The notes: generated by a model from the letters alone, not told the origin. DNA of 64,000 bases from an uncultured Candidatus Saccharibacteria bacterium (GCA_947425245.1 CANDYU010000001.1:63028-127027); one strand, 5' to 3'; shown: positions 3,455 through 64,000, counted from the first letter of the stretch. Made by a program: numbers and translations.

Positions 3455-4033
3455 TTAGTTGATGATCAACTCTGCAAGCTCGGCTTCGGTAAAACCAAAG
3501 CGATCCTGCAAAAGCCGGCACACGAAGTCCTTCGGCCAGTACAGCCAGCGAACCGCATGCCATGCGGTAAGGACCTCCTTGACCATCCCCTTATCGACGG
3601 GACGATCAATGTATGACGCCAGATGATGCACGCCATCACAATCAGAACGATTGCAGAGCGTAAATTCGTATCCTTCACCCGAAATCTTTTGTTCGCTATA
3701 GTTCCACCAGCCGTACTCATCCCGACGATTGTTCAGGAGGATGGTGTATTCCTCGGCGGAGTGGGCCCGAGCCTCTTTCCCGAAGGAAAGCAGCCACATC
3801 AGCAGGTCGTCGTTCCTGTGCGGAACTTTGAGCTTGTCGATGCTAGGCTTTGAGCCATTACAAGACACTATAAAAGCGTCCCCTGGCTTCACATTGGCAC
3901 GGTCGGCGACTTTTTCTCCCTTCCAGAAGATGGTCAGCTGACCCTTCGGGTTATAGCAATAAGTTGTAGACATGCTATTACCTACTCTCTCCTGGTGAGC
4001 GATTTCCTTGACGAATAATCTCTGGTTTGCCAT
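3455..4033 (-). CDS. Hypothetical cytoplasmic protein
   Basis: 192-aa ORF with no recognisable motifs. It is an isolated gene followed by about 390 bp of non-coding DNA. An alternative start at MSTTYCY is possible. Confidence 0.4.
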   Translation of the reverse strand: MANQRLFVKEIAHQERVGNSMSTTYCYNPKGQLTIFWKGEKVADRANVKPGDAFIVSCNGSKPSIDKLKVPHRNDDLLMWLLSFGKEARAHSAEEYTILLNNRRDEYGWWNYSEQKISGEGYEFTLCNRSDCDGVHHLASYIDRPVDKGMVKEVLTAWHAVRWLYWPKDFVCRLLQDRFGFTEAELAELIIN

Positions 4034-4357
4034 AATGTTCTTTCCCTACTACCCGGTTCCCAGCCGGCGTTCGTTCTCGAATGATAAACTGACAAAGATT
4101 TACCATTCTTGCCCCGCCGGGGCTGAGCATTCCTGTATTTTTGTGGGTAGCACAAGAAAGCTATCGAAAAACTAAAACCACTTTCAATGTACTTAAGCCC
4201 TTCTAAGGCATTGTCAGTTCTACGTAGTAGAGCTGGGTTATATAGATATAACCGTAAGCCTTATCAAGCTTATGTTTACATTGTAGCACAGACGATGAAA
4301 ATTGTCAATGGTTTTTATAGTTAATTTGCAAAAATGGAAATAAACTTGGGAAACAAT

Positions 4358-4420: not shown

Positions 4421-6319
<1,899 letters not shown>

Positions 6320-6338: not shown

Positions 6339-6486
6339 AACTAGTTGAGAGTAGCTAGGCTACCATTCTTTTCGGGACACGCTCGTGCCGGCCTGTCGTT
6401 ACAGGCGGCTTACTCGCTTCGCCCGGCTCCCGTTGTCGCCGGAGATTCCCGAGAAAGAACCGTAGCCTAGTTGCTCGCAGCTAGTT
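6339..6486. repeat. Long imperfect hairpin element (about 148 nt) in the dnaK 5' leader
   Basis: Outer arms AACTAG..TAGCTAGGCTAC..TCGGGA pair with TCCCGA..GTAGCCTAG..CTAGTT. The inner hairpin GCCTGT-CGTT-ACAGGC matches the one in the 17138-17265 element. Confidence 0.5.
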
Positions 6487-7539: not shown

Positions 7540-8220
7540 ATGACTAAAGATACGAATTCTGGGCAAAAGAGAAATTGGCGGAAAATTTTTAATCAGGTAG
7601 TACTATTGTTTTTGATTGGGTGTATTTTTGGGACATATTACGAAGAAATTATTACGATTTTTAAGAATTTTTGGGGGACGGGACAGATTATTTGGGAGTC
7701 TCGGCGGGGGTTATTATATGGGCCATTTTCGCCGGTGTATGGGATTGGGGCGGTGTTGATTTATTTGGTGTTTTATTTGCCAAAATTGAAATGGTGGCAG
7801 TGTCTGGGGTTCGGAGCGTTGTTTGGGGGTGCGTTAGAATTTGGGCTGAGCGTGGTGCAGGAATGGATGTTTGGGACGATTTCTTGGGATTATTCGGATC
7901 GGCCGCTGAATATTGCGGGGCGAACAACAATTCCCTATATGCTGTTTTGGGGAGTATTGGTCATGCTGCTGGCGAGGTGGGTTTGTCCGTGGTTGGATGA
8001 GATATATAAGAAGTTGCCGGAGAAAAATGTGAATCTGGCATGTGCGATTATTGCAGCGGTACTGATGGCGGATATTGGAATTTCCCTGCTAGCGGCGGCA
8101 AGACAGTCGGCAAGGCGAGCGGGCGACCCGGCAGACAATCCGATTGAGGTAGTGCTGGATAAATATTATGATGATGAGAGAATGAGCAAAACTTACCGGA
8201 ATACGAGGGTGGCGGAATAA
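7540..8220 (+). CDS. Membrane protein, DUF1113/CmpB-like (putative ABC-transporter type IV family)
   Basis: About 5 TM segments and the YGPFSPVYGIGAV motif. The family call is from memory only. Confidence 0.45.
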   Translation: MTKDTNSGQKRNWRKIFNQVVLLFLIGCIFGTYYEEIITIFKNFWGTGQIIWESRRGLLYGPFSPVYGIGAVLIYLVFYLPKLKWWQCLGFGALFGGALEFGLSVVQEWMFGTISWDYSDRPLNIAGRTTIPYMLFWGVLVMLLARWVCPWLDEIYKKLPEKNVNLACAIIAAVLMADIGISLLAAARQSARRAGDPADNPIEVVLDKYYDDERMSKTYRNTRVAE

Positions 8221-8239: not shown

Positions 8240-9421
8240 ATGGCGTATAATTGGGATATGAGTGAAGTATTAAAGCATACAAACGAAGCAAGCAGGGAGA
8301 AGTCAGAAGATTTGACGGATGTGGCCGGGATTGTGGAACTGGTACGGAATGGATTAGCAAGAGCCAATAACGAGAGAGGCGGCTTAGCGGAGCTTGGGCC
8401 TAAGGAGGGGCGGTTTGAGGTATTTAGACTGCCAGAGGCGATTACGAAAAGGTATGAGTTTCTAACGAAGTTGCCGAAAAATGTAGCTGTCATGGGTGGG
8501 ATGGCACGAAGTATTGCACGCGAGATAATTACTGGAGACCGGGAACCGATTCGGGATATTGACCTGGTGAATATATTAGGGTCGGACGGGGAGAGTTATA
8601 ACGACTGGAAGACGCTGGATAGTTTGGCGGCGGAGTATATGCCGGACGACTATGCGTTCGGACATGGAATCCAGAGTGAGACGCTAGAAAGATATTTTGG
8701 GACGCGGGATTTTACGATTAATGAAGCCTTGGTGATGAATGGAGCTTTGGTTGTTAGTAGTCAGGCGTATGATGATTTGCAAGAGAATATTATTCGACCG
8801 ACAGAATATGAGCAGCCGGACAGCAGAAGGCCGGCGTCGGGTCGGTTGGCGTTACGGGCGTTAACGATGCAGACGGTGTTGCGTGAATGTACGAGTTCAT
8901 ATCCGTTGATTGAGGATATGAATATAGATAGCGACTATATTGGGTCGTTTGATGTGGCAGTGCAGCTGAATAAGGCGATGGGTCGCGGAGCGGAGACGGC
9001 GGAGAGATTTACGGAGCTTTTGGCGGATTATAATATTATTCCGGCGGAGTTGGGCGGAAAGCCAAAGGCGACGGCACGTTATCTGTTAAAATATCGGGTG
9101 TATAATTTTGAGTTTCGGGCGAATGGTGATAAGCGGGTGAGCGAGAAGCAGCATTCAAGCAAAGAAGGCGGATTTTATCAGCCGGGAGTGGCCTCGACGG
9201 TTTACCATGCGACCGATCCGGCGATTCAGGAGGCACTTGAGGAGTACGATGACGATATCCGGACAGAGCGGCGGGATGGGCATTATACCCAAGAGGAGTT
9301 TGACGAAATTAACCGGCAACAGTATGAGGGTTGTGACGATGACAGCTGGGATGACGATGATGAGTGGAGGGATTGGGATGAATACGAAGATGATGCCTAT
9401 GACGAAGACGAGGAGGATTAG
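8240..9421 (+). CDS. Nucleotidyltransferase of the CCA-adding/poly(A) polymerase head-domain family, with an extremely acidic C-terminal tail
   Basis: Motifs MGGMARSIAREI..IRDIDLV and RDFTINEA. The last roughly 40 aa are rich in D, E and W. The start is moved to the ATG at 8240 because the ORF track begins at a TTG. Confidence 0.55.
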   Translation: MAYNWDMSEVLKHTNEASREKSEDLTDVAGIVELVRNGLARANNERGGLAELGPKEGRFEVFRLPEAITKRYEFLTKLPKNVAVMGGMARSIAREIITGDREPIRDIDLVNILGSDGESYNDWKTLDSLAAEYMPDDYAFGHGIQSETLERYFGTRDFTINEALVMNGALVVSSQAYDDLQENIIRPTEYEQPDSRRPASGRLALRALTMQTVLRECTSSYPLIEDMNIDSDYIGSFDVAVQLNKAMGRGAETAERFTELLADYNIIPAELGGKPKATARYLLKYRVYNFEFRANGDKRVSEKQHSSKEGGFYQPGVASTVYHATDPAIQEALEEYDDDIRTERRDGHYTQEEFDEINRQQYEGCDDDSWDDDDEWRDWDEYEDDAYDEDEED

Positions 9422-9556: not shown

Positions 9557-10705
9557 ATGGAAGGTTTAGACCTGCGGCAGTTAAGTGCGATGACGAAAGT
9601 GATTGCAGAGGAAAAAGGTCTGCCGGAAGACACAATATTAGAGGTCGTACAGATGGCAATTGCGGCGGCGTGGCGTAAAGATCACGGTGATAAGGAGATG
9701 AATGTACGAGCTTTATTAGATACGAATACTGGTAAGGCTACCGTGTTTATTGAGCGTGAGGTAATTGAAGACGGTTTAGCCTATAATCCGGCAACCGAGA
9801 TTCCACTAGCTGAAGCAAAGGCGATTAAGCCGGAAGCCGAGATTGGCGATCTAGTTGAAGAATCAGAGGAGGTGACAGACTTTGGTCGCGTGGCGGCAAT
9901 GACAGCAAAACAAGTAGTTGTGCAGAGGTTGCGCGAGGCAGAGCGAGACGCGGTCTTGTCGGAGTTTGAGGACAAGATTGGCACAGTAATGACAGGTGTG
10001 GTGTCTCGTGTTGAGCCGAGAGTAATTAAGATTGATCTGGGGAAGGCTCAGGGTATTATGCCAAAGAGCGAACAGATTGATGGCGAAGTGTTTGGAGTGG
10101 GTGACCGAGTTAAGGTTTATCTCAAGGGGGTGGAGCATGATGACATGCGAGCTCAGTTGATTTTGTCACGAGGTAGTGCGGAGTTTATTGAGTATCTATT
10201 CCGCCAGGAAGTGCCAGAGCTGGAGACTGGATCAGTAGAGATTAAGGGGATTGCTCGCGAAGCGGGACGCCGGACGAAGATTGCGGTAGTATCAACGGTG
10301 CCAGGAGTGGATCCGGTGGGAACCTTTGTGGGTGGACGCGGTATGCGGGTACAGGCCATCATGAACGAGATTGGTGATCGAGAAAAGATTGATATTATTA
10401 ACTGGAGCGAGAATCCGTCGGAATATATTCGTGAGGCTCTTAGTCCGGCCGAGGTAGTTAAAGTAGAAATTGATGGCAAGAAAGCGAAGGTTTTTGTCAC
10501 CGAAGATCAGCAGTCAATTGCGATTGGTCGTCAGGGGCAAAATGTGCGGCTGGCTTCGAAGTTAACTGGATATGACCTTGATATTCAGCTGGCAAAGGCA
10601 CCGGAAAAGAAGAAACGGAAAAATGCGGAAGATTCCCTCTTGAATGCCTTGAGTCAAAGCGACGAAGAGGCCGAGGAGACATCAGAAGGTGGCGAAACGG
10701 AGTAG
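9557..10705 (+). CDS. nusA: Transcription termination/antitermination factor NusA
   Basis: 382 aa with an N-terminal domain, an S1 domain and two KH domains (GRQGQNVRLASKLTG). Confidence 0.95.
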   Translation: MEGLDLRQLSAMTKVIAEEKGLPEDTILEVVQMAIAAAWRKDHGDKEMNVRALLDTNTGKATVFIEREVIEDGLAYNPATEIPLAEAKAIKPEAEIGDLVEESEEVTDFGRVAAMTAKQVVVQRLREAERDAVLSEFEDKIGTVMTGVVSRVEPRVIKIDLGKAQGIMPKSEQIDGEVFGVGDRVKVYLKGVEHDDMRAQLILSRGSAEFIEYLFRQEVPELETGSVEIKGIAREAGRRTKIAVVSTVPGVDPVGTFVGGRGMRVQAIMNEIGDREKIDIINWSENPSEYIREALSPAEVVKVEIDGKKAKVFVTEDQQSIAIGRQGQNVRLASKLTGYDLDIQLAKAPEKKKRKNAEDSLLNALSQSDEEAEETSEGGETE

Positions 10706-10727
10706 ATTAGGCTCTTAACACGAGAAG

Positions 10728-10750
10728 TCCGCCCTTCGGGGCGGATTTTT
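10728..10750 (+). terminator. Rho-independent terminator after nusA
   Basis: TCCGCCC-ttcg-GGGCGGA followed by TTTTT. Confidence 0.75.
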
Positions 10751-10949: not shown

Positions 10950-11172
10950 CTTATCTAACCTAGTACGCCAGACAACGGATGGGGAAAGCACCCCAACGGT
11001 GATTTGGGCCGTTAGAAGGATGAATACTGTTCGAGAAAAAGAAATTGTATCCGGTTTGTCCTTGAGTGTTATCCTCATAAACAGATGCTGATGTCGCTGA
11101 CCAGTAGCGGCTATAGTTCCCCATCCGGCGTGTTGAGCCGTAATAATGAGAGACATACCCGCTACGGACGAT
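10950..11172 (-). repeat. Lectin-like (FISUMP C-terminal half) cassette E; promoterless with no start codon
   Basis: The hand-translated frame is open for 70 codons: IVRSGYVSHYYGSTRRMGNYSRYWSATSASVYEDNTQGQTGYNFFFSNSIHPSNGPNHRWGAFPIRCLAY*. It has the conserved head GTCCGTAGCGGG and the tail ...CCCCATCCGTTGTCTGGCGTACTAGGTTAGATAAG. Confidence 0.7.
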
Positions 11173-11226
11173 TCTTGGTTAATTAACAAGAAAGTTGACA
11201 GAATTAACAGAGGTAAAATGAAGTTG

Positions 11227-11249
11227 AACCCGTATAGGCTATACGGGTT
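11227..11249. repeat. Perfect 10-N-10 palindrome AACCCGTATAG-g-CTATACGGGTT
   Basis: Direct reading. Related copies lie at 11502-11524 and, degenerate, at 63522-63539. Each sits next to a cassette head. Confidence 0.7.
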
Positions 11250-11277
11250 GGAGTAAAAGGTACGATGGGATTTTTCA

Positions 11278-11503
11278 CTTATCTAACCTAGTACGCCAGA
11301 CAACGGATGGGGAAACCGTACCAACGACTGTCCGGGCCGCTCGACGGGCCGACGCCGCTAGCATTGAAACCGAGGTTGTAACCTGCCAAACCAGCAGACC
11401 CATTGTAGTAAATGGGCGAAGCCGTAGGAGACCAAATGTAGCCAGAGATGCCAAGATGCCGGGCAGAGCCGTAGAGGTGAGAGACGTTCCCGCTACGGAC
11501 GAA
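11278..11503 (-). repeat. Lectin-like cassette D; promoterless
   Basis: FVRSGNVSHLYGSARHLGISGYIWSPTASPIYYNGSAGLAGYNLGFNASGVGPSSGPDSRWYGFPIRCLAY*, closely related at the nucleotide level to cassettes A, C and G. Confidence 0.7.
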
Positions 11504-11524
11504 CCCGTATAGACTATACGGGTT
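11502..11524. repeat. Palindrome AACCCGTATAG-a-CTATACGGGTT abutting the head of cassette D
   Basis: Direct reading. Confidence 0.7.
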
Positions 11525-11586
11525 GGATTTAGAATTACCTCTGTTATTTTGGTTGATTTTTCGGTTAATTGAGCGATATTGATTAC

Positions 11587-11896
11587 TTCGTCCGTAGCGG
11601 ATATGTTTATCGCACTCACAGCTCCGTTCGATATTTCGGCCTCGGCGGTTATGGCTGGTCCAGTACTACTTCCTCAATATACTATGACGGAACAACTGGA
11701 TTAGCAGATTATTACCTCACTTTCTATGTTAGCGATGTCCGCCCATCAGACGGTCCATTCTATCGTTATTATGGTTTCCCCATCCGTTGTCCACGCTCCT
11801 GACGTCGCTGACAGAAGCTCGCTCTCTCGGAAATAAAAATGTAAACATTTTTGCTTCTCTCGAGAGCTCCTCAGTTGGCGTACTAGGTTAGATAAG
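11587..11896 (+). repeat. Lectin-like cassette B (diverged), head-to-head with D; its conserved tail is split by an 84-nt insertion
   Basis: FVRSGYVYRTHSSVRYFGLGGYGWSSTTSSIYYDGTTGLADYYLTFYVSDVRPSDGPFYRYYGFPIRCPRS* with the stop at 11800-11802. The tail remnant TGGCGTACTAGGTTAGATAAG resumes at 11876. Confidence 0.7.
11792..11875 (+). repeat. 84-nt hairpin-forming insertion inside the conserved cassette tail (between ..CCGTTGTC and TGGCGTAC..)
   Basis: An almost identical insertion occupies the same position in cassette G (63746-63828). It contains the nested hairpin AGCTCGCTCTCTCGGAA..AAAATG-taaa-CATTTT.. Confidence 0.65.
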
Positions 11897-12049
11897 ATTG
11901 GATATTAGCATTTCACCTGCGAGGGTGGTTGGTTTTCTAGTCTGGTGACGCTCTCTTCGTCTAAAGACTCAGACTCGCGTCAGCCTAGAATGATCAAGAC
12001 TAGAAAACCCAACCACACCTTCGACGCGGTGAAATGACAATATTTAATC
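11896..12049. repeat. Long imperfect hairpin element (about 154 nt) immediately 3' of the cassette B tail
   Basis: Arms CATTTCAC..GGTGGTTGGTTTTCTAGTC pair with GACTAGAAAACCCAACCACACC..GTGAAATG. Confidence 0.5.
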
Positions 12050-12147
12050 TACTGTGGGGTTGTGTGATGGAAGATTTTAGCGTCTATAGTTAATCTGGAA
12101 AGCCAAAATGGAACCGCAATCGGGGGGGCGATGTACGGTTCCATTTT

Positions 12148-12223
12148 GGTTGCGGGAGTTGGATTTGAACCAACGACCTTTTGGTTATGAGCCAAACGAG
12201 CTACCAGGCTGCTCTATCCCGCG
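12148..12223 (-). tRNA. Initiator tRNA-fMet (anticodon CAT), CCA encoded
   Basis: The reverse complement reads CGCGGGATAGAGCAGCCTGGTAGCTCGTTTGGCTCATAACCAAAAGGTCGTTGGTTCAAATCCAACTCCCGCAACCA. It has the C1xA72 mismatch and is near-identical to E. coli tRNA-fMet as I recall it. Confidence 0.9.
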
Positions 12224-12264
12224 ATATTCTTAAACGGTAGAACAATCTCCGCAGTACATGTTCA

Positions 12265-12292
12265 TTATATATCACATTTTTTACTGAGTCAA
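12265..12292 (-). promoter_or_regulatory. Putative promoter of tRNA-fMet
   Basis: On the minus strand: TTGACT, a 16-nt spacer, then TATAAT, about 35 nt upstream of the tRNA 5' end. Confidence 0.5.
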
Positions 12293-12445
12293 TAGTTTTT
12301 CTTAAAAAAGTCCATGATTCTACAAACAAAAGGTTTGCTTAATTAATCCAAAAAGAGTTAATTGAGATGGCTCCTTGAGGATTGATAATCGATTAGTATA
12401 AATATAATATTGACACCGGTTAAGCCCCCTAAAGTACAGGGCAAC

Positions 12446-12671
12446 CTTATCTAACCTAGTACGCCAGACAACGAATGGGGAAAGCGTTCCAACGATGGTA
12501 CGGGCCGTTCGACGGGTTGACGCCACTAGCATTGAAATTGAGGTTGTAACCTGTCAAAGCAGCAGACCCATTGTTGTAAACGGGCGAAGCCGTAGTGGAC
12601 CAATTGTAGCCATTGATGCCAAGGTTCCGGGCAGAGCCGTTGTCGCGACGGACGACCCCGCTACGGACGAA
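12446..12671 (-). repeat. Lectin-like cassette A, the most Asn/adenine-rich copy (TR-like); its head overlaps the stop codon of the upstream membrane-protein gene
   Basis: FVRSGVVRRDNGSARNLGINGYNWSTTASPVYNNGSAALTGYNLNFNASGVNPSNGPYHRWNAFPIRCLAY*, with 12 AAY codons. It is the only copy with CCCCATTCGTTGTC in place of CCCCATCCGTTGTC in the tail. Confidence 0.7.
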
Positions 12672-14316
12672 GACTGTGCTTAGGGGATGCGAAAATGATG
12701 AGAAGAAGAGGTGGAAGGAGATAGATATGGAGGGCGTTAGGCAGGCCGGCGAAGAAGTTAAGAGTAACAAGATAGGCGAGAATGAGGCTAATGAGGAGAG
12801 GGAGGGCGGGGTTGGACCAGAAGAGGGATTTTGGTGGGCGATTGGAATGGCGAAGCGGGAGGGGCGAGAAAGCCACGATCAGTACAAAGATAATAATGAT
12901 AATTCCGATGAGGCCGAGCTCGAGGAGGAGGCTGAAAAATTGGTTTTGGACGATTTCTTTGGGGCTGGTGACGCGATCGGGAAAGCGGGCGTGCATGGCA
13001 CTGCCAGCACCACCTAGGCCAACGCCGAATAGGATACTGGCGGGGGTGTCAAGCCAAGTGTCAATAGCGGTACCAGTGAGATTGAGGCGAATGTTGGTTG
13101 ATTCGGCGACGTAGCCATCGAAAATCGCAGAATCGGTGGGGGTGGGGCCGGAGGAATCTGACGATTCGGGGGGATTTTCTAAGGAGCTGGATGAGTTCGT
13201 GGGCTCAGCGTCAGATTGAGCGGAGCTGCGAGGACGAAGATCAATAAGGCCAAGTGAGAGCTGGTGAAGGGACTTGGCGGCACCGGAAAGAAAAGAGTCG
13301 TGAGTTGGGCCGATGACGGTGAAAAAGCCTTGGACAGTAAGAGTAAAGAGGAAGGAGAGGACAGGGATAAGAATGAGGGTAAGGATGGGTCGGGCAAAGC
13401 GACGACGGTAGAGGAGAAAACAGGAAAAGGCAAAGAGAGCGATGGCATAGGCATAGATTGCTCCGCGAGAGAAAGTGAGGAAGAGGGTGGAGGAAAAGAA
13501 GAAGGTAATAAGGATAAGGAGGGCGGTAGTACGCTTGGAGGAGTGGTGGCAGGGGGAGACGAGGAGGTAGAGTGCCGTCAGGGTTGGGGCGAGGAGGAGG
13601 TTGCCCATGAATTGGGGCTCGATGGCAAAACCGGAGGGGTGCGGAAAGCCGAAGGACTGAGAAACACAACCGAGACAAAGAAGGCTGGATTCGCGACCGA
13701 TACCGGCGAGGTCGAGAAAGCACTGGATCCAGCAGAAGAGGCAGACGAGTGCACTAAAGAGAAAAAATGATTTTAAGAGGAGACGGGAGAAGTTTTTGGG
13801 GGGAGTGAGGAGGGGTAGAATGTAAATTAATGAGAAAATGGCAAAGAAGAGCAGCCAAATAATGCCGGCGGTGAGAATGGCTCGGAGGGGATTGGGCGAC
13901 CAGAAGGCGGAGATAGTGGCGTAGAACGGGAATAGGGAGAGGAGAAAGAACCGGCGATCAGAAATGCCAGTAAAATTGGTGGTGAAGAGTTTTTTGAGGC
14001 TGAGGAGGGAGGATCTGGCGATACTTTGAGGATTTTTAGTACTTTGAAGACTTTTTTTACTTTGAAGTTTATCGGCACTTTGAAGATTTTTGGTACTTTG
14101 AGACCGGTTGGGGTTTTGTAGGAAAAGTGCGATGAAACTGAGAAAATCGAAGATGACTAGCCAAATGAGCGGAAGAGAGAGCTCGAAGTTCATGGTTTGG
14201 TTGGAACCGAGGCGGATTATGGGATAGTAAGAAAAGAAGAGGACGCCCGGAAGAAGGAGAATCAGGAAGAGGATGGCTTTTCTAAGGATTGATGATGGTT
14301 CTTTGGTTGGTTTCAT
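12661..14316 (-). CDS. O-antigen ligase/polymerase-like (Wzy_C family) polytopic membrane protein
   Basis: 551 aa with at least 10 TM segments and a LTFSRGAIYAYAIALF-type Wzy_C signature. It lies in the glycan locus. Confidence 0.7.
   Translation of the reverse strand: MKPTKEPSSILRKAILFLILLLPGVLFFSYYPIIRLGSNQTMNFELSLPLIWLVIFDFLSFIALFLQNPNRSQSTKNLQSADKLQSKKSLQSTKNPQSIARSSLLSLKKLFTTNFTGISDRRFFLLSLFPFYATISAFWSPNPLRAILTAGIIWLLFFAIFSLIYILPLLTPPKNFSRLLLKSFFLFSALVCLFCWIQCFLDLAGIGRESSLLCLGCVSQSFGFPHPSGFAIEPQFMGNLLLAPTLTALYLLVSPCHHSSKRTTALLILITFFFSSTLFLTFSRGAIYAYAIALFAFSCFLLYRRRFARPILTLILIPVLSFLFTLTVQGFFTVIGPTHDSFLSGAAKSLHQLSLGLIDLRPRSSAQSDAEPTNSSSSLENPPESSDSSGPTPTDSAIFDGYVAESTNIRLNLTGTAIDTWLDTPASILFGVGLGGAGSAMHARFPDRVTSPKEIVQNQFFSLLLELGLIGIIIIIFVLIVAFSPLPLRHSNRPPKSLFWSNPALPLLISLILAYLVTLNFFAGLPNALHIYLLPPLLLIIFASPKHSLRP
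14022..14110. repeat. In-frame tandem repeat of about 18 bp, roughly 5 copies (TACTTTGAAG-core), inside the ligase-like gene
   Basis: Direct reading. It encodes QSTKNLQSADKLQSKKSLQSTKNPQS. Confidence 0.65.
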
Positions 14317-15686
14317 AGTTTCGTTCCCTCCTGGGGTTTAAGGTTTTGTGATTTTGATGATTGTTCGGAAAATGCGGAGACGAGTTGGGAGATGTTGGAG
14401 CGGAAATGTTTGGAGGAGAACTTCGTGGCGGTGCTTGAGACGGCGGAACGGCTGTAGTCGGAGGATTGGAAGGATTTAAGGGCTTTCGCGAGGGATTCGG
14501 GGGTTTGTTTGGCAAAAAAGAGGCCGTTCTTCCCTGGCTGGATGATGTCTTGGCTGCCGCCGGCTTTGTAGGCGATGACTGGGCAGCCGGCAGCAAGGGC
14601 TTCAACTGCAGCGATACCGAATGGTTCGAGGCTGGGGAAAATGTAGGCGGTGGCGGATTGGAGGTATTGCGAGAGCTCTTTAGCGTCGAGCCAAGGAATA
14701 AAATGAATAAGAGGGGTGGCGAGAGTCTCGAGATGATGATGTTCAGGGCCGTCACCAATGACGACTAGGCGTTTCTGGGCCAAAATGCAACCCTTAATAG
14801 CAAGGTCGACGCGTTTCCAGGTTACCTGGCGACAAGAAATGACGAAGTATGGCTCATTTCTAGAGACCGTCGTAGGAGTGGATTCGGTACTCCTGTGGAA
14901 AAGTTGTGGAAAAAATGTGGAAAAAATGTGGATTTTTGTGGAGAAATTCGGGTTTTTGGTGGATTTCTTGTGGATTTCTTGTGGATTTTTGTGGAGAAGT
15001 TCGGATTTTTGGTGGATTTCTTGTGGATTTCTTGTGGATTTTTGTGGAGAAGTTGTGGAAAAGGGTGAGAAACGACTAATATCAACAGGGGGAGCTATGA
15101 TTTTGGCGTCGCGGTGGTAAAACTGTTTAATCTGGGCGGCGGCGTAGCTAGAAATCGTCACGAATTGGTCGGGTCGCTGGGCGGCTCGGAAATCGGCCTG
15201 GCGAAGAGGCTTAATAAGGCATTTCAGGGCGAGGCGGACGAGAGGATTCAGAAAGCCGAAACCGGGATTTTTGATGTATTGGTCGTACATTTGCCAGTAA
15301 TATTGGGTGGGGACATGGCAATAACAGATGTGATAATTGGTCTTCACAGCCTTCGCCTCAGCACCCGTGACCGAGATGACTAGGTCGTAGTGGCTGAGGT
15401 CGAGATGCGAGAAATAGAGAGCCCGAAGAGGGCCAAGGAGCTTGCGAAGGCAGGCAGGAAAGAGGTTGAGCCAACCGGTGCGGACGATGGCTGTATTAAA
15501 CCAGGCGATTTTCTTGGGGCGATATTGAGAAGTGTAAATTGGGGCGTCGGGATACATCTGGTGTAGTTCGAGGAGGACTTTTTCGGCACCGCCAGGGGTA
15601 GTGAGCCAGTCACAGACGAGAGCGATGGAGGGGTCGGGGGTTGATTTTTTGGCAGTTTTGGTCGTTTTAGAGCGAGATTTGGACAT
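14313..15686 (-). CDS. Glycosyltransferase family 4 (GT-B fold) with a repeat-encoded insert in the interdomain linker
   Basis: N-terminal LVCDWLTTPGGAEKV and C-terminal EPFGIAAVEALAAGCPVIA motifs. The start overlaps the downstream gene (ATGA). Confidence 0.8.
   Translation of the reverse strand: MSKSRSKTTKTAKKSTPDPSIALVCDWLTTPGGAEKVLLELHQMYPDAPIYTSQYRPKKIAWFNTAIVRTGWLNLFPACLRKLLGPLRALYFSHLDLSHYDLVISVTGAEAKAVKTNYHICYCHVPTQYYWQMYDQYIKNPGFGFLNPLVRLALKCLIKPLRQADFRAAQRPDQFVTISSYAAAQIKQFYHRDAKIIAPPVDISRFSPFSTTSPQKSTRNPQEIHQKSELLHKNPQEIHKKSTKNPNFSTKIHIFSTFFPQLFHRSTESTPTTVSRNEPYFVISCRQVTWKRVDLAIKGCILAQKRLVVIGDGPEHHHLETLATPLIHFIPWLDAKELSQYLQSATAYIFPSLEPFGIAAVEALAAGCPVIAYKAGGSQDIIQPGKNGLFFAKQTPESLAKALKSFQSSDYSRSAVSSTATKFSSKHFRSNISQLVSAFSEQSSKSQNLKPQEGTKL
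14894..15062. repeat. Array of 14 same-orientation DnaA-box-like 9-mers ((T/G)GTGGA(A/T/G)(A/T)(A/T)) with 10-11 bp phasing, including a 53-bp higher-order duplication, in frame within the GT4 gene
   Basis: Box starts read at 14894, 14905, 14916, 14927, 14937, 14958, 14969, 14980, 14990, 15011, 15022, 15033, 15043 and 15054. Confidence 0.7.
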
Positions 15687-17110
15687 TATTTCGCCCCTTT
15701 GCGGAAGAGGACGGCCCAGAAAGTCTTAAACATAATACGAAAGTCGAGGCTCATGGACCAGTTTTGGATATAGTAAAGATCAAGAGCTCGGCGTTCTTCA
15801 AAGGAAATGTCGCGGCGGCCGGAGACTTGGGCGAGGCCGGTGACGCCGGACTTAACGGAGAGGAGGAGGGAGCGGTCGCCGTAATGATGAAGTTCGCCCG
15901 GAACGAGAGCACGAGGTCCGACTAGCGAAATGTCGCCGCGAAGGACATTGAAAAGTTGGGGTAGCTCGTCGAGCGAAGTGGCACGGAGAAAATGGCCGAG
16001 TTTTGTAATACGAGGATCGTTCGGAATCATGTCGCCGTTCTTGCGGTATTTTTTTATGAGATGGGGCTTGCCCATTTTAGTAAAGGCTTCTTCGGGAGAG
16101 AGGCCGGAATATTCGGGTTTCATGGAGCGGAACTTATAGATTTTAAAACGATGATCGTAGCGGGAGAGGCGGGTTTCGGCATAGATGGGCGAAGCGGTGG
16201 GGTCGGAGAATTTTTCGATAAGCCAAATAATCGCCATGGGGATAGCGGCAATGATAAGAACGAGAGTACTAATAACGAGATCACAGGCACGCTTGGCGAT
16301 CTTTGCACTGCCAGCCAGGGGTGTAACACGGACAAAAATTGAGGGAGTGTCGCCGATTAGCTCGAGGTCGCCCATTTGTGAGGTCAACATGGCATTCGAG
16401 GGGACGAAATAGTAGAGGAGATGGTGGTTAATTGATTGACGATAGACATATTCAGTGCGGCGATCGTCGGTTTGGAAAATAACATCGGGCTTCGTGCGAC
16501 GAAGGGCCTCTTTAAGCGAAGAATATTGTTTCCGGCGAAGGTCTTTAGGGATAAACTTAGCCCCAGCGACAACGCCGGCTAACGAAAAACCAGATTCGGG
16601 GAAGGCGGAGATGTAGTTTGCGAGGTATTCGGTGTTTTTGCTATTGCCGATGATGACGGCACGGAGGGTGACTTTACGGGTCTTAAAGGTGTGGCTACGG
16701 ATTAGGCGGATTAAGCCACGGAAGAGGCAGAGGCTGAGAAAACAGGTCAAAACGGCATAGAGAACCATGATGCGGACTGGGAAAAGGTCGACATGGAAGA
16801 AAAAATCGTAGCTGATAATCGCCATCATACCAACGACTGAGGCAAGAAAGAGTCGGCCGAACTCTGACCAGCGGCTATGCTTCAGGAAGATGGATTTACT
16901 ATAGAGGCCAAAGGCGGCAAGAACCACTAAATATACAGGTAGAAGAACGAGAATGGAAAGAACGAAGTCAAGAGGCTCAGCTTTAAAGTAGAAAGGGCGT
17001 TGGTCGAGATGAATGCGAATCAAGTAGGCTACCAAAAAGGAGAGCAAAATTGCACAGGCGTCTCCGAGCACTAGAAAAAAATGAAAAATCAGCCCAAAAT
17101 CTCTCCTCAT
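15686..17110 (-). CDS. Polyprenyl-phosphate hexose-1-phosphate transferase (WbaP/EpsB-like initiating sugar transferase)
   Basis: 474 aa with N-terminal TM segments and a C-terminal bacterial sugar transferase domain (LDELPQLFNVLRGDISLVGPRA, GVTGLAQVSGRR). Confidence 0.9.
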   Translation of the reverse strand: MRRDFGLIFHFFLVLGDACAILLSFLVAYLIRIHLDQRPFYFKAEPLDFVLSILVLLPVYLVVLAAFGLYSKSIFLKHSRWSEFGRLFLASVVGMMAIISYDFFFHVDLFPVRIMVLYAVLTCFLSLCLFRGLIRLIRSHTFKTRKVTLRAVIIGNSKNTEYLANYISAFPESGFSLAGVVAGAKFIPKDLRRKQYSSLKEALRRTKPDVIFQTDDRRTEYVYRQSINHHLLYYFVPSNAMLTSQMGDLELIGDTPSIFVRVTPLAGSAKIAKRACDLVISTLVLIIAAIPMAIIWLIEKFSDPTASPIYAETRLSRYDHRFKIYKFRSMKPEYSGLSPEEAFTKMGKPHLIKKYRKNGDMIPNDPRITKLGHFLRATSLDELPQLFNVLRGDISLVGPRALVPGELHHYGDRSLLLSVKSGVTGLAQVSGRRDISFEERRALDLYYIQNWSMSLDFRIMFKTFWAVLFRKGAK

Positions 17111-28504: not shown

Positions 28505-30745
28505 CTATTTTACGAGTTGAAGTCTCCATTCTTGAGCTAACTGAGAATAGTTCTCCCAGAGCCAGATTTGGCTACCCATAGTTGTGGTCGCTCCAGCAAT
28601 GTCGACAACTCGATTATCAAGACAAGAAGAAACAATTTTATAGTGTCCGTTTGCCATCTTATTAAAGTGCCATCGTGTTGTGCAGTTGCTGGCCTGGGTT
28701 TGCGAATTAATTACTACATTGTTACCCATAGAACCGTTTTTATTTGTGATGGATAGGCTCTTGCTGGAGTTGAGATCGGTAAGAGTATAATCTCCTGTCA
28801 GTCTATTGTAGGTAATTTGCCATTTTTGTGCGCCTTGAGGATACTGCTCCCAAAGCCAAACATTGGCACCATTGGTTTTGCTTAAGCCGGAAACATCAAC
28901 AGCCCGACTATTGTCTGCCCCAGAGAGCAAAACATATATTCCTTCGTCAATATAATCATAGTTCGTTGTTGGCTTAAATGACCATTTTTGGCTATTAGAG
29001 TTGTTGGATGCCCATAACTGAATGTTGGTTCCGAAGCTATTGTTTCCGCCCTGCACATCAATTACTTGCCCAACTTTGCATGCAGACATGATAGTATATG
29101 AGGAATCATCCGTCGCGGGGATAATCTTCCAATAGTGACCACATGTCTCGTATTTATGCCAGACTTGAATATTTGCTCCTAGATTAGTAGATGCACCCGT
29201 AACTTCGAGTGTTTTACCAGATTCTATATTAGTTATGATATATGAATCGACACTTGGCTCGTAGACAAAGTGCCAGTTCTGAAAACCTCCGTAATAGTCT
29301 TCCCAGAGCTGAATATTAGCACCATCAGAATCATTTAGTCCTGCAACATCTAATGTGAGGTTAGCATTGAGATTGGTTTGAATCTTGTAATTAGCCTCCT
29401 GAACTGTTTGGCCAATATATGTTTGCCAAAGTTGGCTTTGTGAACCGATATATGAAGATAGAACGAGGTTAACGCCGTTTCGTATATCACTGCTAGTTGC
29501 GGTAATTACCATACCTTTTGCACACGAAGACTCAAAGACGAGACTGTTATCACTAGGTTGATAGATTTGCCACCGTTGAGCACAAGACGATGAGGGCTGA
29601 GAGATTTGGAGGTTTACACCATCAGCAATAGTTTCGGTCGCCGCACTAAGATTCAAATTAGAATTAATATCTACGATAGTAAAGTCTTGGGTTGTACTAT
29701 TATACACAACTCGCCAACGCTGAGCACCTTGGGGATACTGTTCCCACAGTTGAACATTTGTGCCATGATAATTCTGTAATCCGGAAACATCGAAAACGAA
29801 GCGTTTTGTTGATTCTGTTGAAGAAAAGCCATAAATCCCTTCGGGAATACTGGTTAGATACTCTTTACTAATTGCTTCTTGAGTATTCCCAAACCAATCT
29901 GTAAAGTAGAGGTAGAAGTTACGGTTTCCGTAAGCTGAACAGATATCTCCAGTACCATAACCAGCAGCAAGGGCAGAGGAGTTGGGTTGGTATGGAGTAT
30001 AGCGATAGAGGGATGAAGTTGCTCGATTCTCAATGAAGACCATACTACCACCACAGCCAGCTGAAGGGTTGTATTGGATATAGCTCATTTGGCCGGCTGG
30101 ATAGTTAGACCATCCACCATCTAAGACACTGCGGAACATAGCAGCGGCGTTGTGGACTTGGTTTTTGAAGCCATAGTATTTTGAGCTGCAGGCTGCAGTA
30201 TCTGGACAGCCATATCCGGTAGCGGAGCGGAATTGGTTGCTGTTTGGATAGCTATCGGTAATTAGGCTTTGCTCTTTTTCGAGAAGCACGAGGAGAACTT
30301 GGGGGTTAATACGATAATCTTGGGCGGCTTCGTAAATAATATCGGCGGCACTCTGCCCTTCTCCCGGGTTAAGAGCGGCACCATAAACGGTTCCATCACC
30401 AAAACGCTCTTCGGCTAAACAGACGAAGTGTCCATTTTCAAAATGCCAATCGGTGTTTGGGTAGGCAGCCTTCAGTTGTAGATATTGATTGTAGTTAGTA
30501 TTATTACAGTTCCCTTTTGTATTAAGGAAGTTTTGAATATCGGCACGCGACATCGAATTGTAATTTGCCATCACGCTATCACTGATAATGTTCCCAGCAT
30601 TAAAGCCGCTGGTTGTTGCCGCAGAAGAGCGTTGCATCCCGTGCATAGCTAAGAATGAAAGGGTTGTAATCATACAGAAGATAAAGAGTACAATAAACAT
30701 TGTATAATACTTACGCAGGTTGTCGGTTAGGGATTTTAGATTCAT
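28505..30745 (-). CDS. Secreted or anchored protein: a conserved N-terminal wall-associated domain followed by three ricin-type beta-trefoil lectin domains
   Basis: N-terminal TM or signal sequence. Nine QxW-type repeats are present (e.g. NVQLWEQYPQGAQRWRV, NIQLWEDYYGGFQNWHF, NVWLWEQYPQGAQKWQI), which gives 3 domains of 3 subdomains each. Confidence 0.8.
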   Translation of the reverse strand: MNLKSLTDNLRKYYTMFIVLFIFCMITTLSFLAMHGMQRSSAATTSGFNAGNIISDSVMANYNSMSRADIQNFLNTKGNCNNTNYNQYLQLKAAYPNTDWHFENGHFVCLAEERFGDGTVYGAALNPGEGQSAADIIYEAAQDYRINPQVLLVLLEKEQSLITDSYPNSNQFRSATGYGCPDTAACSSKYYGFKNQVHNAAAMFRSVLDGGWSNYPAGQMSYIQYNPSAGCGGSMVFIENRATSSLYRYTPYQPNSSALAAGYGTGDICSAYGNRNFYLYFTDWFGNTQEAISKEYLTSIPEGIYGFSSTESTKRFVFDVSGLQNYHGTNVQLWEQYPQGAQRWRVVYNSTTQDFTIVDINSNLNLSAATETIADGVNLQISQPSSSCAQRWQIYQPSDNSLVFESSCAKGMVITATSSDIRNGVNLVLSSYIGSQSQLWQTYIGQTVQEANYKIQTNLNANLTLDVAGLNDSDGANIQLWEDYYGGFQNWHFVYEPSVDSYIITNIESGKTLEVTGASTNLGANIQVWHKYETCGHYWKIIPATDDSSYTIMSACKVGQVIDVQGGNNSFGTNIQLWASNNSNSQKWSFKPTTNYDYIDEGIYVLLSGADNSRAVDVSGLSKTNGANVWLWEQYPQGAQKWQITYNRLTGDYTLTDLNSSKSLSITNKNGSMGNNVVINSQTQASNCTTRWHFNKMANGHYKIVSSCLDNRVVDIAGATTTMGSQIWLWENYSQLAQEWRLQLVK

Positions 30746-57492: not shown

Positions 57493-58176
57493 ATGATGAA
57501 GAAGTTTTTGGCGTTTTTTGGGGTAATAGCTACAGTATGGATGGGCCTTTTAGTATTAAATCCGACAAATGTTTTTGCGGCGAGGGGTCAATGTAGTGAG
57601 GGGTTCTTGGGTTTTCGTCCTTGGTACGATGGACTTTGTAGTGGGGGTGAGATTGAACAGCCACAGGGTGAAGATGAGCTAATTACCTATGCTTGGACGG
57701 TTGCTTTGAATATCTTGGTGGATTTGTTAGTAGCTGTGGGGTATTTGGCCTTAGGGTTTGTGGTGTATGGTGGGTATTTATATATTATGTCGCAAGGAGA
57801 TCCGGGCAAGTTGGCAAAGGGTAAAAAGACATTAACTTCGGCAATTATCGGAACGATTATTGCTATGGTGGCGTCGATTGCGGTGAATACTTTGAAGGTG
57901 GTATTAGGAATTAATACTAATGGGTGGAATCAGGGCGAGATTACGCAGGATCAGATTTCTAATCTTTTCTCGTGGGTTTATACGGTAGGGGGGATTGTGG
58001 CGGTGATTTTTATCGTGAAGGGGGCGTTAGAGTATATGATATCGCATGGGGATCCAGGTAAGGCACGATCGGCAACGCAAACGATTCTTTATGCGGTGGT
58101 GGGTCTGATTATTGTGTTGTTAGCGGCGGCGATTACGACGTTTGTGATTACATCGGTTAGTGGAAACTTGCAATAG
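57493..58176 (+). CDS. T4SS pilin (TrbC/VirB2-like), duplicated-domain form
   Basis: Signal peptide, a Cys pair, and two copies of the TM-SxGDPGK-basic-TM module (MSQGDPGKLAKGKK and ISHGDPGKARSA). Confidence 0.75.
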   Translation: MMKKFLAFFGVIATVWMGLLVLNPTNVFAARGQCSEGFLGFRPWYDGLCSGGEIEQPQGEDELITYAWTVALNILVDLLVAVGYLALGFVVYGGYLYIMSQGDPGKLAKGKKTLTSAIIGTIIAMVASIAVNTLKVVLGINTNGWNQGEITQDQISNLFSWVYTVGGIVAVIFIVKGALEYMISHGDPGKARSATQTILYAVVGLIIVLLAAAITTFVITSVSGNLQ

Positions 58177-58187
58177 GAAGGAGGAGT

Positions 58188-58577
58188 ATGAGGAAGATTT
58201 TAGTAGTGATGGGGTTGTTGGTATTATCAGTGTTGGGATTGGGGGTCTTGGTTAATTCCCCAGTGATGGCCTTATCGAATGTTTGTGATGATCCGGACAT
58301 TGCGGAGGATTTAAAGGAGGCGGCGGGGTGTGAGCTGGATAGTAATGATAACGTCTTGAATGTAGTAGTGGGGCTGATTGAGGTGGCGTTAGGGTTGTTT
58401 GGGCTAATCGGGGTGGGGGTAATTGTGTATGGGGCTTTGATTTATACGACTAGTGTTGGCGATACTGGTAAAACAGCAAAAGCGAAGAATATTATATTGT
58501 ATGGAATAGTAGGGTTAGTAGTGTCGATGTTGGCTTTTGCGGTCGTGCGGTTCGTTTCCGCAGTAATTGGCGGGTAA
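58188..58577 (+). CDS. T4SS pilin (TrbC/VirB2-like)
   Basis: Signal peptide, a Cys pair, then TM-TSVGDTGKTAKAKN-TM. Confidence 0.75.
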   Translation: MRKILVVMGLLVLSVLGLGVLVNSPVMALSNVCDDPDIAEDLKEAAGCELDSNDNVLNVVVGLIEVALGLFGLIGVGVIVYGALIYTTSVGDTGKTAKAKNIILYGIVGLVVSMLAFAVVRFVSAVIGG

Positions 58578-58647
58578 AAATATAGACATTTTATATTTTA
58601 TGATGTATTATGGTAGTAATTATAGATAATTGGAAAGGAATAATTTA

Positions 58648-59049: not shown

Positions 59050-59074
59050 TAACTTAATTTTGCTGGTATAGTAA

Positions 59075-59491: not shown

Positions 59492-59496
59492 TATAA

Positions 59497-59859: not shown

Positions 59860-59863
59860 TAAA

Positions 59864-63264: not shown

Positions 63265-63300
63265 CATATAGAATATCCTAATGCTATGTTTGTTCTTACT

Positions 63301-63521: not shown

Positions 63522-63540
63522 CTAGTATAGCCTATACAGA

Positions 63541-63846: not shown

Positions 63847-64000
63847 GGCTAAACACACAAGCTGAATACACACTCCCACTATTCAACGCATAATATGAAA
63901 ATGTAGGTGGTCTCAAAAGTACCAGGATAATTAAATTGACTCGATGCACTGCCTATATATTTAGTGTTCAATAAATCCCGTTCTCAAATCTGTCAGATTG

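Follow-up and report, generated by a model that had tools for sequence, protein, structure and literature searches.

Hypervariable cassettes with invariant ends in a Saccharibacteria genome as candidate modules of a diversity-generating retroelement

The window, a 64-kb stretch of DNA from a Saccharibacteria epibiont of the mouse gut with a tiny genome, carries promoterless cassettes of 71 codons. The original prediction described seven copies in this window, each open for 70 to 71 codons, starting with (F/I/L)VRSG and ending with PIRCLAY or PIRCPRS before the stop codon, and all seven are real. A 21-nt tail sequence, TGGCGTACTAGGTTAGATAAG, occurs seven times in the window versus a chance expectation of 0.02, and the head sequence TTCGTCCGTAGCGGG is present at the same seven places. 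However, a family size of seven applies only to the window, as other contigs of the same genome add a copy (H), a truncated head, and four further copies, for a genome total of at least 12 full copies.

Four of the copies are near neighbors. Cassette E (10950 to 11172, minus strand) is a member of a divergent subfamily whose 70 codons start with IVRSG and end with PIRCLAY and a stop codon, with its tail at 10950 to 10970. The region upstream of E on the same strand (11173 to 11252) comprises the palindrome AACCCGTATAGCCTATACGGGTT and a leader of approximately 55 nt, in which TTACCTCTGTTA and GTTAATTAA are conserved. Cassette D (11278 to 11503, minus strand) is a variable-type representative of the A-family. 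Its head faces that of cassette B across an 83-bp gap (11504 to 11586, plus strand), in which the palindrome CCCGTATAGACTATACGGG adjoins the D head and is followed by a 60-nt leader to the B head. Cassette B (11587 to 11896, plus strand), also divergent, has a core at 11587 to 11791, an 84-nt hairpin insertion at 11792 to 11875, and a tail that resumes at 11876 to 11896. Cassette A (12446 to 12671, minus strand) is Asn-rich and template-like, with 12 AAY (Asn) codons among its 71. As had been noted before, its head overlaps the stop codon of another gene, which is a Wzy_C gene (12661 to 14316); a tRNA-Met gene lies 222 nt downstream of A.

The remaining three copies lie near the other end of the window. 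Cassette C (59864 to 60089, minus strand), which sits behind the terminator of hsp20, is the closest derivative of A and is identical to it over the first 45 nt. Cassette F (63296 to 63521, minus strand) is the most divergent copy, with mismatches to A at 104 of 205 positions, yet it retains an open frame and conserved ends. A 19-nt palindromic spacer, CTAGTATAGCCTATACAGA (63522 to 63540, not assigned to a strand), separates the inverted heads of F and cassette G and forms a 50-nt perfect hairpin or cruciform together with both heads. Cassette G (63541 to 63849, plus strand) is an A-family copy with its core at 63541 to 63745, an 83-nt hairpin insertion at 63746 to 63828, and its tail at 63829 to 63849. 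The two head-to-head pairs and the position of C behind a terminator are as originally described. The tail had also been called common to all copies, which is correct, but in B and G it is split, rather than replaced, by the hairpin insertion of 83 to 84 nt located between ..CCGTTGTC and TGGCGTAC.. in the sequence. The insertions of G and B are 95% identical, and their presence in these tails explains the PRS ending.

Conservation of the cassette ends extends to the nucleotide level. The 15-nt head and a tail of about 45 nt, including 13 nt past the stop codon, are invariant, and all 18 cassettes compared agree at head codons 2 to 4, at tail codons 65, 67, and 68, and in the post-stop tail. 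Inverted heads, with the palindrome AACCCGTATAGNCTATACGGGTT adjoining one head and the leader adjoining the other, recur at D/B, F/G, H and the truncated head, and L9b/L9c. This anatomy, which is the part of an earlier shufflon proposal that holds up, could accommodate an invertible switch in which the palindrome and head serve as sites for a site-specific recombinase, and the leader of about 60 nt, or a larger segment, is inverted between opposed cassettes. R64-type shufflons likewise have alternative C-terminal segments in opposite orientations and short conserved boundary sequences, but those segments are clustered behind one gene, whereas the cassettes are scattered across more than 100 kb. 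Furthermore, neither an adjoining Rci-like or other recombinase nor a constant N-terminal coding region is present here: recombinases are absent from the window and from the vicinity of most pairs. The leader lacks anything resembling a promoter, a Shine-Dalgarno sequence and a conserved start codon are likewise missing from it, and both leader orientations were never observed at one locus. At the related locus L009, cassettes at 12287 (plus strand) and 16871 (minus strand) flank a segment encoding a large serine recombinase, although this enzyme belongs to an apparent integrated element that also has Rep and DUF2726 genes. On balance, a switch of this kind seems very improbable.

The original prediction assigned the cassettes to a lectin-like domain called FISUMP, and specifically to its C-terminal half. 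The seven peptides match no Pfam or NCBIfam model directly, even at E values up to 10, but the assignment can be recovered through intermediates. Relatives linked to the cassettes by E values of 1e-20 to 1e-6 do match PF09603, with the FVRSG..RC part falling on model positions 130 to 186. For example, one relative (P0124) scores 41.8 bits versus a cut-off of 33.9, and another (P0112) aligns to positions 47 to 186 of the Fib_succ_major model with an E value of 5.5e-6. Also, a profile of the cassettes used in an exhaustive search matches the C-terminal ends of full-length Fib_succ_major surface proteins with E values of 1e-21 or lower. Because direct model matches are lacking whereas relatives and the profile align to the C-terminal end, each cassette appears to be a fragment, comprising the last 60 to 70 residues of a Fib_succ_major (FISUMP/DUF1566, CLec2) domain, and not a whole domain. 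The fragment is C-terminal as predicted, but it corresponds to the last third only (approximately positions 130 to 187 of the 187 in the model) rather than to one half. A profile search against PDB sequences returned only noise. Fib_succ_major/DUF1566 CLec2 domains are an established class of variable regions in diversity-generating retroelements, or DGRs (Wu et al. 2018, PMC5758913).

Most of the copies lack the features needed for ordinary expression. As originally proposed, no Shine-Dalgarno sequence precedes any of the 12 full cassettes, and sigma-70 scans found no promoter upstream of the cassettes or in the leader. The claim that start codons are missing is true for eight of these 12, but an in-frame TTG occurs six codons upstream of the B head, another TTG lies 33 codons upstream of A, and E has an internal ATG. 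Homologues were sought by a word search of 5.8 billion proteins and by an exhaustive search of 1.84 billion proteins. FVRSG..PIRCLAY is never joined to an N-terminal domain among the 103 and 26 word-indexed matches or the best 150 of 5947 exhaustive matches, and the longest homologue found for the FVRSG subfamily has at most 211 amino acids. A full-length expression locus with the same flanks, the existence of which had been anticipated, was found neither in the window nor in the other loci and protein searches, and assemblies may break at such a locus. With most start codons and the N-terminal domain missing, the variable region does not form the 3′ end of a target gene as it does in known DGRs.

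Alternatively, the cassettes might be viewed as independent small genes for proteins of approximately 75 amino acids that act alone or are paired with a scaffold from another gene. At some loci, a short leader with a start codon is conserved and is followed by cores that differ by strain, as with MDIIFVRSG (P0002/P0006), MRK(A/D)SSFVRSG, and MRAYDNIASPPLSFVRSG, and one relative (L008) has AAGGG just before its ATG. Framework codons are under purifying selection, and DGR targets as short as 44 amino acids have been reported (Wu et al. 2018, PMC5758913). However, the general absence of initiation signals described above is difficult to reconcile with such genes, and the TTG upstream of B is TTA in a paralogous leader. 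A unit that is only the last third of a domain, that has no signal peptide, and that AlphaFold models with a mean pLDDT of only 47 from a 60-sequence alignment likewise makes it highly doubtful that these are independent genes. The variable glycan-binding tip that had been suggested is an inference; most copies are untranslatable by ordinary initiation.

Variation in the cores follows a DGR-like pattern. Adenine constitutes 18.5% of the bases of A, but when A is treated as a template, its adenines account for 12 of the 17 mismatches in C (binomial p 4e-6), 16 of 31 in D (p 3e-5), 18 of 40 in G (p 1e-4), and 17 of 32 in the C-locus allele of another strain, L025 (p 1e-5). Differences concentrated at template adenines are what is expected for a template/variable pair, and the bias vanishes when any other copy serves as the template. 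Across nine A-family copies, variation affects 31 of 36 adenine columns, 26 of them with three or more bases, versus 55 of 139 other columns (Fisher p 4.5e-7). All variable adenine columns are at codon positions 1 and 2.

Codon usage carries the same mark. In 17 other cassettes, 95% of the codons in the 12 AAY columns end with C or T, compared to 66% in framework columns, and 201 of the 204 residues in AAY columns can be reached from AAY by changes at positions 1 and 2. Fourfold-degenerate codons in hypervariable columns, defined as the 12 AAY columns plus three inferred ones, have pyrimidine ends in 30 of 30 A-family cases and 28 of 33 divergent cases, versus 70% and 60%, respectively, in framework columns (p 9e-5 and 0.0065). 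Lys, Glu, Gln, Met, and Trp are nearly absent from hypervariable columns, and the family contains both Asn-rich and Asn-poor members, which share the same frameworks. The original prediction offered two mechanisms, and these adenine-specific differences and NNY codons strongly support the one involving a DGR.

This pattern is imperfect, with 45% to 71% of the mismatches between A and the copies examined located at adenines and the other 29% to 55% located elsewhere. The usual bioinformatic criteria for template/variable pairs admit few differences other than those at adenines (Wu et al. 2018, PMC5758913), and we expect the pairs formed by A and its copies to fall short of such criteria or to be marginal. 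Compared with an inferred ancestral template, A itself seems to have undergone mutagenesis in its first 45 nt. An FGADL extension after some Asn-rich members was considered as a template-spacer signal, but it is simply the post-stop tail read in another frame.

Homing in DGRs is directed by a short sequence called IMH at the 3′ end of the variable region, and the template carries a slightly different counterpart called IMH*. The tail of A reads CCCCATTCG and those of the other window copies read CCCCATCCG, such that T198 of A could be taken as an IMH* feature. The presence of CCCCGTCCG in both cassette H and the L037 allele of the A locus weakens this argument. Also, C agrees with A at position 188 but not at 198. 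Since the A locus itself is replaced between strains, its tail variant is probably not a stable IMH* mark. A downstream target hairpin was likewise considered and dropped because no hairpin within 100 nt of the tails is consistent across copies, and Rfam returned nothing for the structured elements adjoining C and B.

In known DGRs, the template repeat is normally found beside the reverse transcriptase gene, but A resides between the Wzy_C and tRNA-Met genes with neither a reverse transcriptase nor Avd adjoining it. The original prediction raised the prospect of a DGR reverse transcriptase, Avd, or a recombinase, none of which was detected in the 64-kb window by motif scans, HMMs, or Pfam. Searches for a reverse transcriptase using YxDD motif scans, a DGR reverse transcriptase HMM with filters off, and Pfam were negative for approximately 240 kb of loci around more than 20 cassettes from at least eight genomes. 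Seen by genome, the negative scans took in approximately 45 kb more of the genome that contains the window and the surroundings, within 6 to 10 kb, of cassettes from seven others. No reverse transcriptase adjoins the Asn-rich copies of four genomes (A in the window, L027, L028, and L039). The YxDD match in the window lies by chance inside a type IV secretion protein. When the enzyme of a Bordetella phage (bRT) was used as the query, the matches listed (at least 120) included only close bRT relatives and no Saccharibacteria enzyme, and an HMM built from these matches found nothing in the window or the cassette loci. Targets located at a distance from the gene for the enzyme are known among DGRs (Wu et al. 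2018, PMC5758913), and one DGR clade is confined to Patescibacteria (Roux et al. 2021, PMC8144416).

We consider it somewhat probable that the cassettes are free-standing template/variable-repeat modules of a CLec2-class DGR that is served by a distant reverse transcriptase, with the heads and tails acting as homing anchors. An Asn-rich (AAY-rich) template, exemplified in the window by copy A, would be transcribed and then copied by an error-prone reverse transcriptase encoded elsewhere in the genome, which would misincorporate nucleotides opposite adenines. The resulting cDNA would replace the core of any cassette with the invariant GC-rich tail and the invariant head, wherein the tail sequence ..TTCCCCATCCGTTGTCTGGCGTACTAGGTTAGA would serve as the 3′ homing anchor and the head as the 5′ homology anchor. 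AAY codons would thereby be rewritten as NNY, leaving framework codons and the reading frame intact; changes at positions 1 and 2 never convert AAY to a stop codon. Given that only the head and tail would be needed, whole cores could also be exchanged between loci.

Comparisons between strains reveal replacement of cores, with breakpoints at the head or tail for the A and L9a loci. At the C locus, another strain differs at 29 of 205 core positions, with one difference in the neighboring sequence compared. The L037 allele of the A locus differs at 21 of 143 positions, many of them synonymous and five at adenines, next to a flank that is unchanged (0 of 315 nt). For the L9a locus, the L041 sequence is identical at 112 of 113 upstream positions but differs at 67 of 226 cassette positions. 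Within one region of 3965 nt, two assemblies have a single difference, at position 63707 inside G. Donor copies for the replaced cores were not identified in the sequences compared. Thus, the part of the original gene conversion proposal that calls for cassette-level replacement is observed, but not the expression locus among the homologues found.

These findings give some plausibility to a purely recombinational form of antigenic variation, in which the cassettes would be silent donors with no reverse transcriptase today, the heads and tails would be homology blocks for gene conversion, and selection at an expression site would keep promoterless partial copies open. Multiple promoterless partial copies with conserved flanks, most of them without start codons, are present, and all 12 full copies of the genome have intact frames. 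Synonymous sites of the cores are saturated (pS 0.64 to 0.88), whereas framework codons have dN/dS values of approximately 0.1 to 0.3. Whole-core replacement at the A and L9a loci, the nucleotide identity of the ends, and the failure to find a reverse transcriptase in the sequences scanned are all compatible with silent donors, as are arrays of head-to-tail copies that form a single open frame in other lineages, an organization also seen in the vls silent array. Like vls of Borrelia (with vlsE), pilS of Neisseria (with pilE), and MgPar of Mycoplasma genitalium, the cassettes are promoterless partial open copies with conserved flanks and hypervariable cores, dispersed or in tandem in a small, host-attached genome, with whole-core replacement between strains. 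In contrast to those systems, the databases searched here disclose no expression locus, and the cassettes have a codon mark of adenine mutagenesis that recombination alone does not give. Recombination plus selection also would leave unexplained the third-position pyrimidines, even at fourfold-degenerate hypervariable codons, the near-absence of five amino acids, and the existence of Asn-rich copies. We therefore regard silent donors as an unlikely, albeit credible, explanation.

A slightly less likely proposal is that the cassettes are inert relics, derived from former DGR targets or templates as residual 3′ fragments or retro-copies, with no function or active diversifier. Such decay might account for the lack of a reverse transcriptase in the scanned loci, the missing promoters and start codons, and the hairpin insertions in the tails of B and G. 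Similarly, the point of 5′ truncation varies by lineage (FVRSG, NYNIA..PL, GWxLP, ICP, or YDAHYL) while the 3′ end is common, and one related locus shows no variation among more than 140 contigs. However, relics should not retain intact frames in every full copy, and in every related-strain and L006 copy that reaches its stop codon, despite saturated synonymous divergence. Nor should they maintain an invariant head and tail, including nucleotides past the stop codon, or differ in their cores between strains that have identical flanks. In addition, fourfold-degenerate codons at hypervariable sites show no drift at their third positions, a point in favor of recent rewriting.

The DGR modules that we favor share numerous characteristics with CLec2-type DGRs (DUF1566/DUF823/Fib_succ_major), such as the one that diversifies LdtA of Legionella pneumophila. 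These include the same domain class, a variable region at the extreme C-terminus with a ..G(F)x(V/I)RC end, an Asn/AAY-rich template versus NNY-diversified copies, and a GC-rich conserved 3′ end. Several dispersed targets per genome are likewise found in multi-target DGRs such as that of Treponema denticola, which has seven (Wu et al. 2018, PMC5758913). Unlike in typical DGRs, neither the template-like copy nor any target has a reverse transcriptase or Avd in its vicinity, many template-to-copy mismatches are off adenines, and the template-like locus varies between strains. Moreover, the cassettes are not parts of genes, as the N-terminal two-thirds of the domain and, in most instances, a start codon are missing. 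DGRs of the candidate phyla radiation are reported to tend toward a single target (Wu et al. 2018, PMC5758913), versus at least 12 full copies here.

A more speculative arrangement, to which we assign a low likelihood, is a genome-wide archive of free-standing modules that are both rewritten and multiplied by a distant DGR, and that would be a hybrid of DGR mutagenesis and silent-cassette variation. Template cDNA would home to any site bounded by a head and tail, thereby swapping whole cores between loci, and occasionally would generate new copies that are 5′ truncated and 3′ anchored, often beside tRNA genes. The modules would feed an expression site, and tandem arrays in other phyla would be the same phenomenon.

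For Saccharibacteria, which are attached to host bacteria and possess very small genomes, a dozen or more hypervariable ligand-binding tips would represent a large investment. If the modules are DGR substrates, then three assumptions would require revision: that a DGR variable region is the 3′ end of a gene, that the template lies beside the reverse transcriptase, and that DGRs of the candidate phyla radiation serve a single target. Surveys that start from the reverse transcriptase and look only nearby would miss such families, a limit that has been stated for this approach (Roux et al. 2021, PMC8144416). Should the modules supply an expression site instead, they would be, to our knowledge, the first example of silent-cassette variation from the candidate phyla radiation; a literature search on Saccharibacteria with DGRs or hypervariable cassettes found nothing specific. 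Either way, the sequences offer a handle for read-level tests of variation in the attachment surface of these epibionts. Scans of phage records by DNA and by protein gave no matches, and a scan with a 17-nt tail sequence gave none in viral contigs. The same tail scan yielded one real match in genome contigs (L006) and three real matches in metagenome contigs, all of which are short.

The architecture described in the original prediction holds at every copy in the window. The window holds seven instances of a 21-nt tail sequence where chance would give 0.02, and a 15-nt head is found at the same seven sites. Every copy has an uninterrupted frame of 70-71 codons, which begins with (F/I/L)VRSG and ends with PIRCLAY or PIRCPRS and a stop codon. 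The head-to-head pairs D/B (83 bp apart) and F/G (19 bp apart), the overlap of copy A with the stop codon of a Wzy_C gene, and the location of copy C behind the hsp20 terminator were likewise borne out. The invariant tail is present in all seven copies, although in B and G it is interrupted by an 83-84-nt hairpin insertion. Also, a family of seven is correct for the window but too small for the genome, which carries more copies elsewhere. Two ENA contigs match the window (one identical across 9.1 kb, the other with 1 mismatch in 3965 nt) and contribute copy H, a truncated head, and four further copies; thus, the same genome holds at least 12 full cassettes. The sole match in genome collections is a Saccharibacteria MAG, and the hsp20 locus beside a cassette is also present in a mouse-gut sample; the organism is a mouse-gut Saccharibacteria. 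Other window content includes a surface-polysaccharide locus, dnaA-dnaN-recF, and a type IV secretion system.

The proposed lectin-like (FISUMP) identity was recovered through longer relatives and profile searches, but not by direct model scans, in which the seven cassette peptides had no matches to Pfam or NCBIfam models. A nine-cassette profile retrieved 103 relatives, every one 63-123 aa in length, some of which run further upstream with the motifs NYNIA..PL, MLxKYGL, GW(K/M)LP, ICP..W.LP, and YDAHYLxGNYYSW. These longer relatives match PF09603 (Fib_succ_major), with the FVRSG..RC part occupying model positions 130-186 of 187, and weakly match Lcl_C/DUF1566. When 1.84 billion representative proteins were searched exhaustively with a cassette profile, 5947 matched, and these included full-length surface proteins in which the match covers the last 60-70 residues of a genuine Fib_succ_major domain. 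Based on this alignment and these C-terminal matches, the cassette appears to be the last third of a C-type-lectin-like Fib_succ_major domain, a 5'-truncated, 3'-anchored fragment whose truncation point varies by lineage. The peptide is not predicted to fold alone (AlphaFold, 60-sequence alignment, mean pLDDT 47). Among the matches listed (for the exhaustive search, the best 150 of 5947), none has an N-terminal domain fused to FVRSG..PIRCLAY, and the longest such member is 168 aa. Several apparent long proteins among the matches proved to be read-through open frames over tandem arrays of 3-10 units, some including an Asn-rich unit. In another lineage, the proteins P0250, P0253, P0255, and P0258 carry 7-10 tandem units of the form FFPASGYR..GFPVRCVQASA in a single open frame, with the arrays interrupted by a ~90-codon repeated element; P0255 starts with an Asn-rich unit.

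The strongest clue to mechanism comes from copy A, which has 12 AAY codons. With A as the template (adenine expectation 18.5%, binomial test), mismatches coincide with its adenines at 12 of 17 positions for C (p = 4e-6), 16 of 31 for D (p = 3e-5), 18 of 40 for G (p = 1e-4), and 17 of 32 for L025, the C-locus allele of another strain (p = 1e-5); reverse comparisons, using a template other than A, lack this bias. Across nine copies of the A family, 31 of 36 adenine columns are variable versus 55 of 139 other columns (p = 4.5e-7), and 26 of those 31 carry at least three bases. The variable adenine columns fall exclusively at codon positions 1-2; most of the remaining variable columns are third positions. 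Where A has AAY (12 columns), 17 other cassettes carry NNY in 95% of codons, and 201 of 204 residues there can be reached from AAY. Fourfold-degenerate codons in hypervariable columns end in a pyrimidine in 30 of 30 cases in the A family and 28 of 33 in divergent cassettes, compared with 70% and 60%, respectively, in framework columns. Asn-rich and Asn-poor members on shared frameworks recur family-wide. This codon pattern bears the signature of adenine-directed mutagenesis acting on an AAY template, and recombination or selection alone would hardly produce it.

Selection and allelic differences add further constraints. The framework is under selection as protein: its codons, compared among divergent paralogues within a single genome, have pS of 0.64-0.88, pN of 0.2-0.35, and dN/dS of ~0.1-0.3, and every synonymous codon is used at residues such as T27, S13, and P57. 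All 18 cassettes compared are identical at head codons 2-4, at tail codons 65, 67, and 68, and in the post-stop tail, so the ends are constrained as DNA or RNA and not as protein. Between strains, the C locus (L025) differs at 29 of 205 core positions, mostly of Asn type, with 1 difference in the flank compared, and the A locus (L037) differs at 21 of 143, many synonymous and just 5 at adenines, beside 315 identical flanking bases. The L9a locus (L041) is identical at 112 of 113 positions up to the head, followed by a core differing at 67 of 226 and unrelated sequence downstream of the cassette. Alleles thus arise by point rewriting as well as by replacement of whole cores, and the breakpoints lie at the head or tail. 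A related locus in another species is invariant across >140 contigs, and a second has one allele differing at Asn-type positions, with several junctions directly after ..RC.

The best-supported reading, which we regard as moderately probable, is that the cassettes are template/variable modules of a diversity-generating retroelement (DGR) of the CLec2 target class. The invariant tail would serve as the 3' homing anchor and the head as the 5' homology anchor, which would explain the intact frames, NNY rewriting, nucleotide-conserved ends, and whole-core swaps. DUF1566/DUF823/Fib_succ_major targets form category 'd', ~14% of DGRs, and targets >100 kb from the enzyme gene exist (Wu et al., PMC5758913); one DGR clade is confined to Patescibacteria (Roux et al., PMC8144416). 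The DGR idea was supported by adenine bias and NNY codons, but not by its enzyme: motif scans, a DGR reverse-transcriptase HMM with filters off, and Pfam found no reverse transcriptase in the window, in a further ~45 kb of this genome, or within 6-10 kb of the cassettes of seven other genomes, a search that took in four Asn-rich copies. This reading also leaves unexplained why the variable regions are not embedded in a gene, why the template-like copy lies apart from any reverse transcriptase, and why there is selection at the protein level. The main rival, a recombinational library of silent cassettes, accounts for the selection and anatomy, but leaves the NNY pattern unexplained, and no expression site for it was found among the homologues retrieved; we consider it possible but unlikely. 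The two readings are compatible, and a DGR-diversified cassette archive is an equally tentative combination of them. That the cassettes are relics seems rather unlikely. An inversion switch is very improbable, and no recombinase was found in the window. Any in-frame start codon is absent from 8 of 12 cassettes, and B, A, and E have weak candidates; none of the 12 has a Shine-Dalgarno sequence or promoter-like site, and no consistent hairpin follows the tails among the cassettes. Small independent genes are likewise a highly doubtful explanation. The finding is genuine and not ordinary, and its domain class and mutational mechanism are already known kinds; the literature searched held no description of such modules standing free of any gene, in many copies, and with no reverse transcriptase close by.

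Very often a cassette sits immediately upstream of a tRNA gene or between two of them. Copy A precedes tRNA-Met (window 12147-12223), G precedes a tRNA at L001 ~3985-4075, the L027 cassette precedes one at 6363-6434, and the L038 cassette is flanked by two (~7835-7910 and ~8290-8365). On contig L009, with tRNA sites at ~9880-9955, ~10660-10735, and downstream of 16650, cassette L9a is flanked by two and L9d precedes one. An inverted cassette pair there (12287-16871) encloses a 4.4-kb segment encoding a DUF2726 protein, a rolling-circle Rep (PF23343), and a large serine recombinase; the segment may be an integrated element that uses cassettes or is delimited by them. The head of A supplies, in another frame, the last three codons and stop of the Wzy_C (O-antigen ligase-like) gene (CTT CGT CCG TAG, window 12661-12671), and in a distant relative (L042) a cassette adjoins a Wzy_C-GT4-Bac_transf locus. 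Copy C is surrounded by five paralogous pilin genes of type IV secretion (PF18895; window 57493-59491 and 61508-61936). Beside them lies a full complement of type IV secretion genes (41-57 kb of the window), in which two proteins of 630-700 aa carry lysozyme and peptidase domains. The window's second, conventional lectin is a 746-aa protein with five ricin-type beta-trefoil repeats (28505-30745), within the polysaccharide locus.

Several structured elements adjoin cassettes. Right after the C tail lies a 381-nt element (window 59485-59865) that can fold on either strand, with a closing stem of ~60 bp, a branched interior, and z-scores of -14.6 (minus strand) and -12.5 (plus strand). It has no Rfam matches even at E<=1, partial copies of 37 and 51 nt adjoin a cassette in L034, and it could be a structured RNA or a MITE-like palindromic element. 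A near-perfect 146-nt hairpin (window 11900-12045, z -8.8) directly follows the B tail, and in L009 the tails of two cassettes are likewise followed by its first ~30 nt (..CATTTCACCTGCGAGGG). The hairpin insertions in B (11792-11875) and G (63746-63828) are 95% identical and occupy the same point of the tail; L041 carries a related hairpin insertion and L006 an insertion of ~60 nt that is unrelated, each with a second tail copy after it. These insertions suggest that the tail may be an insertion target. An ~80-nt conserved element (GGCTCCAGCT..TCTCG..AAAGATCGTGAAGTTA), absent from the window and with no Rfam match at the gathering threshold, lies 70-250 nt upstream of Asn-rich cassettes on two other Saccharibacteria contigs (L027 ~5880-5960 and L039 ~290-370). 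Immediately before an ordinary 156-aa gene, which has an extended -10 promoter element of its own, L001 carries a palindrome, a leader, and an 18-nt head that no cassette follows (4517-4700).
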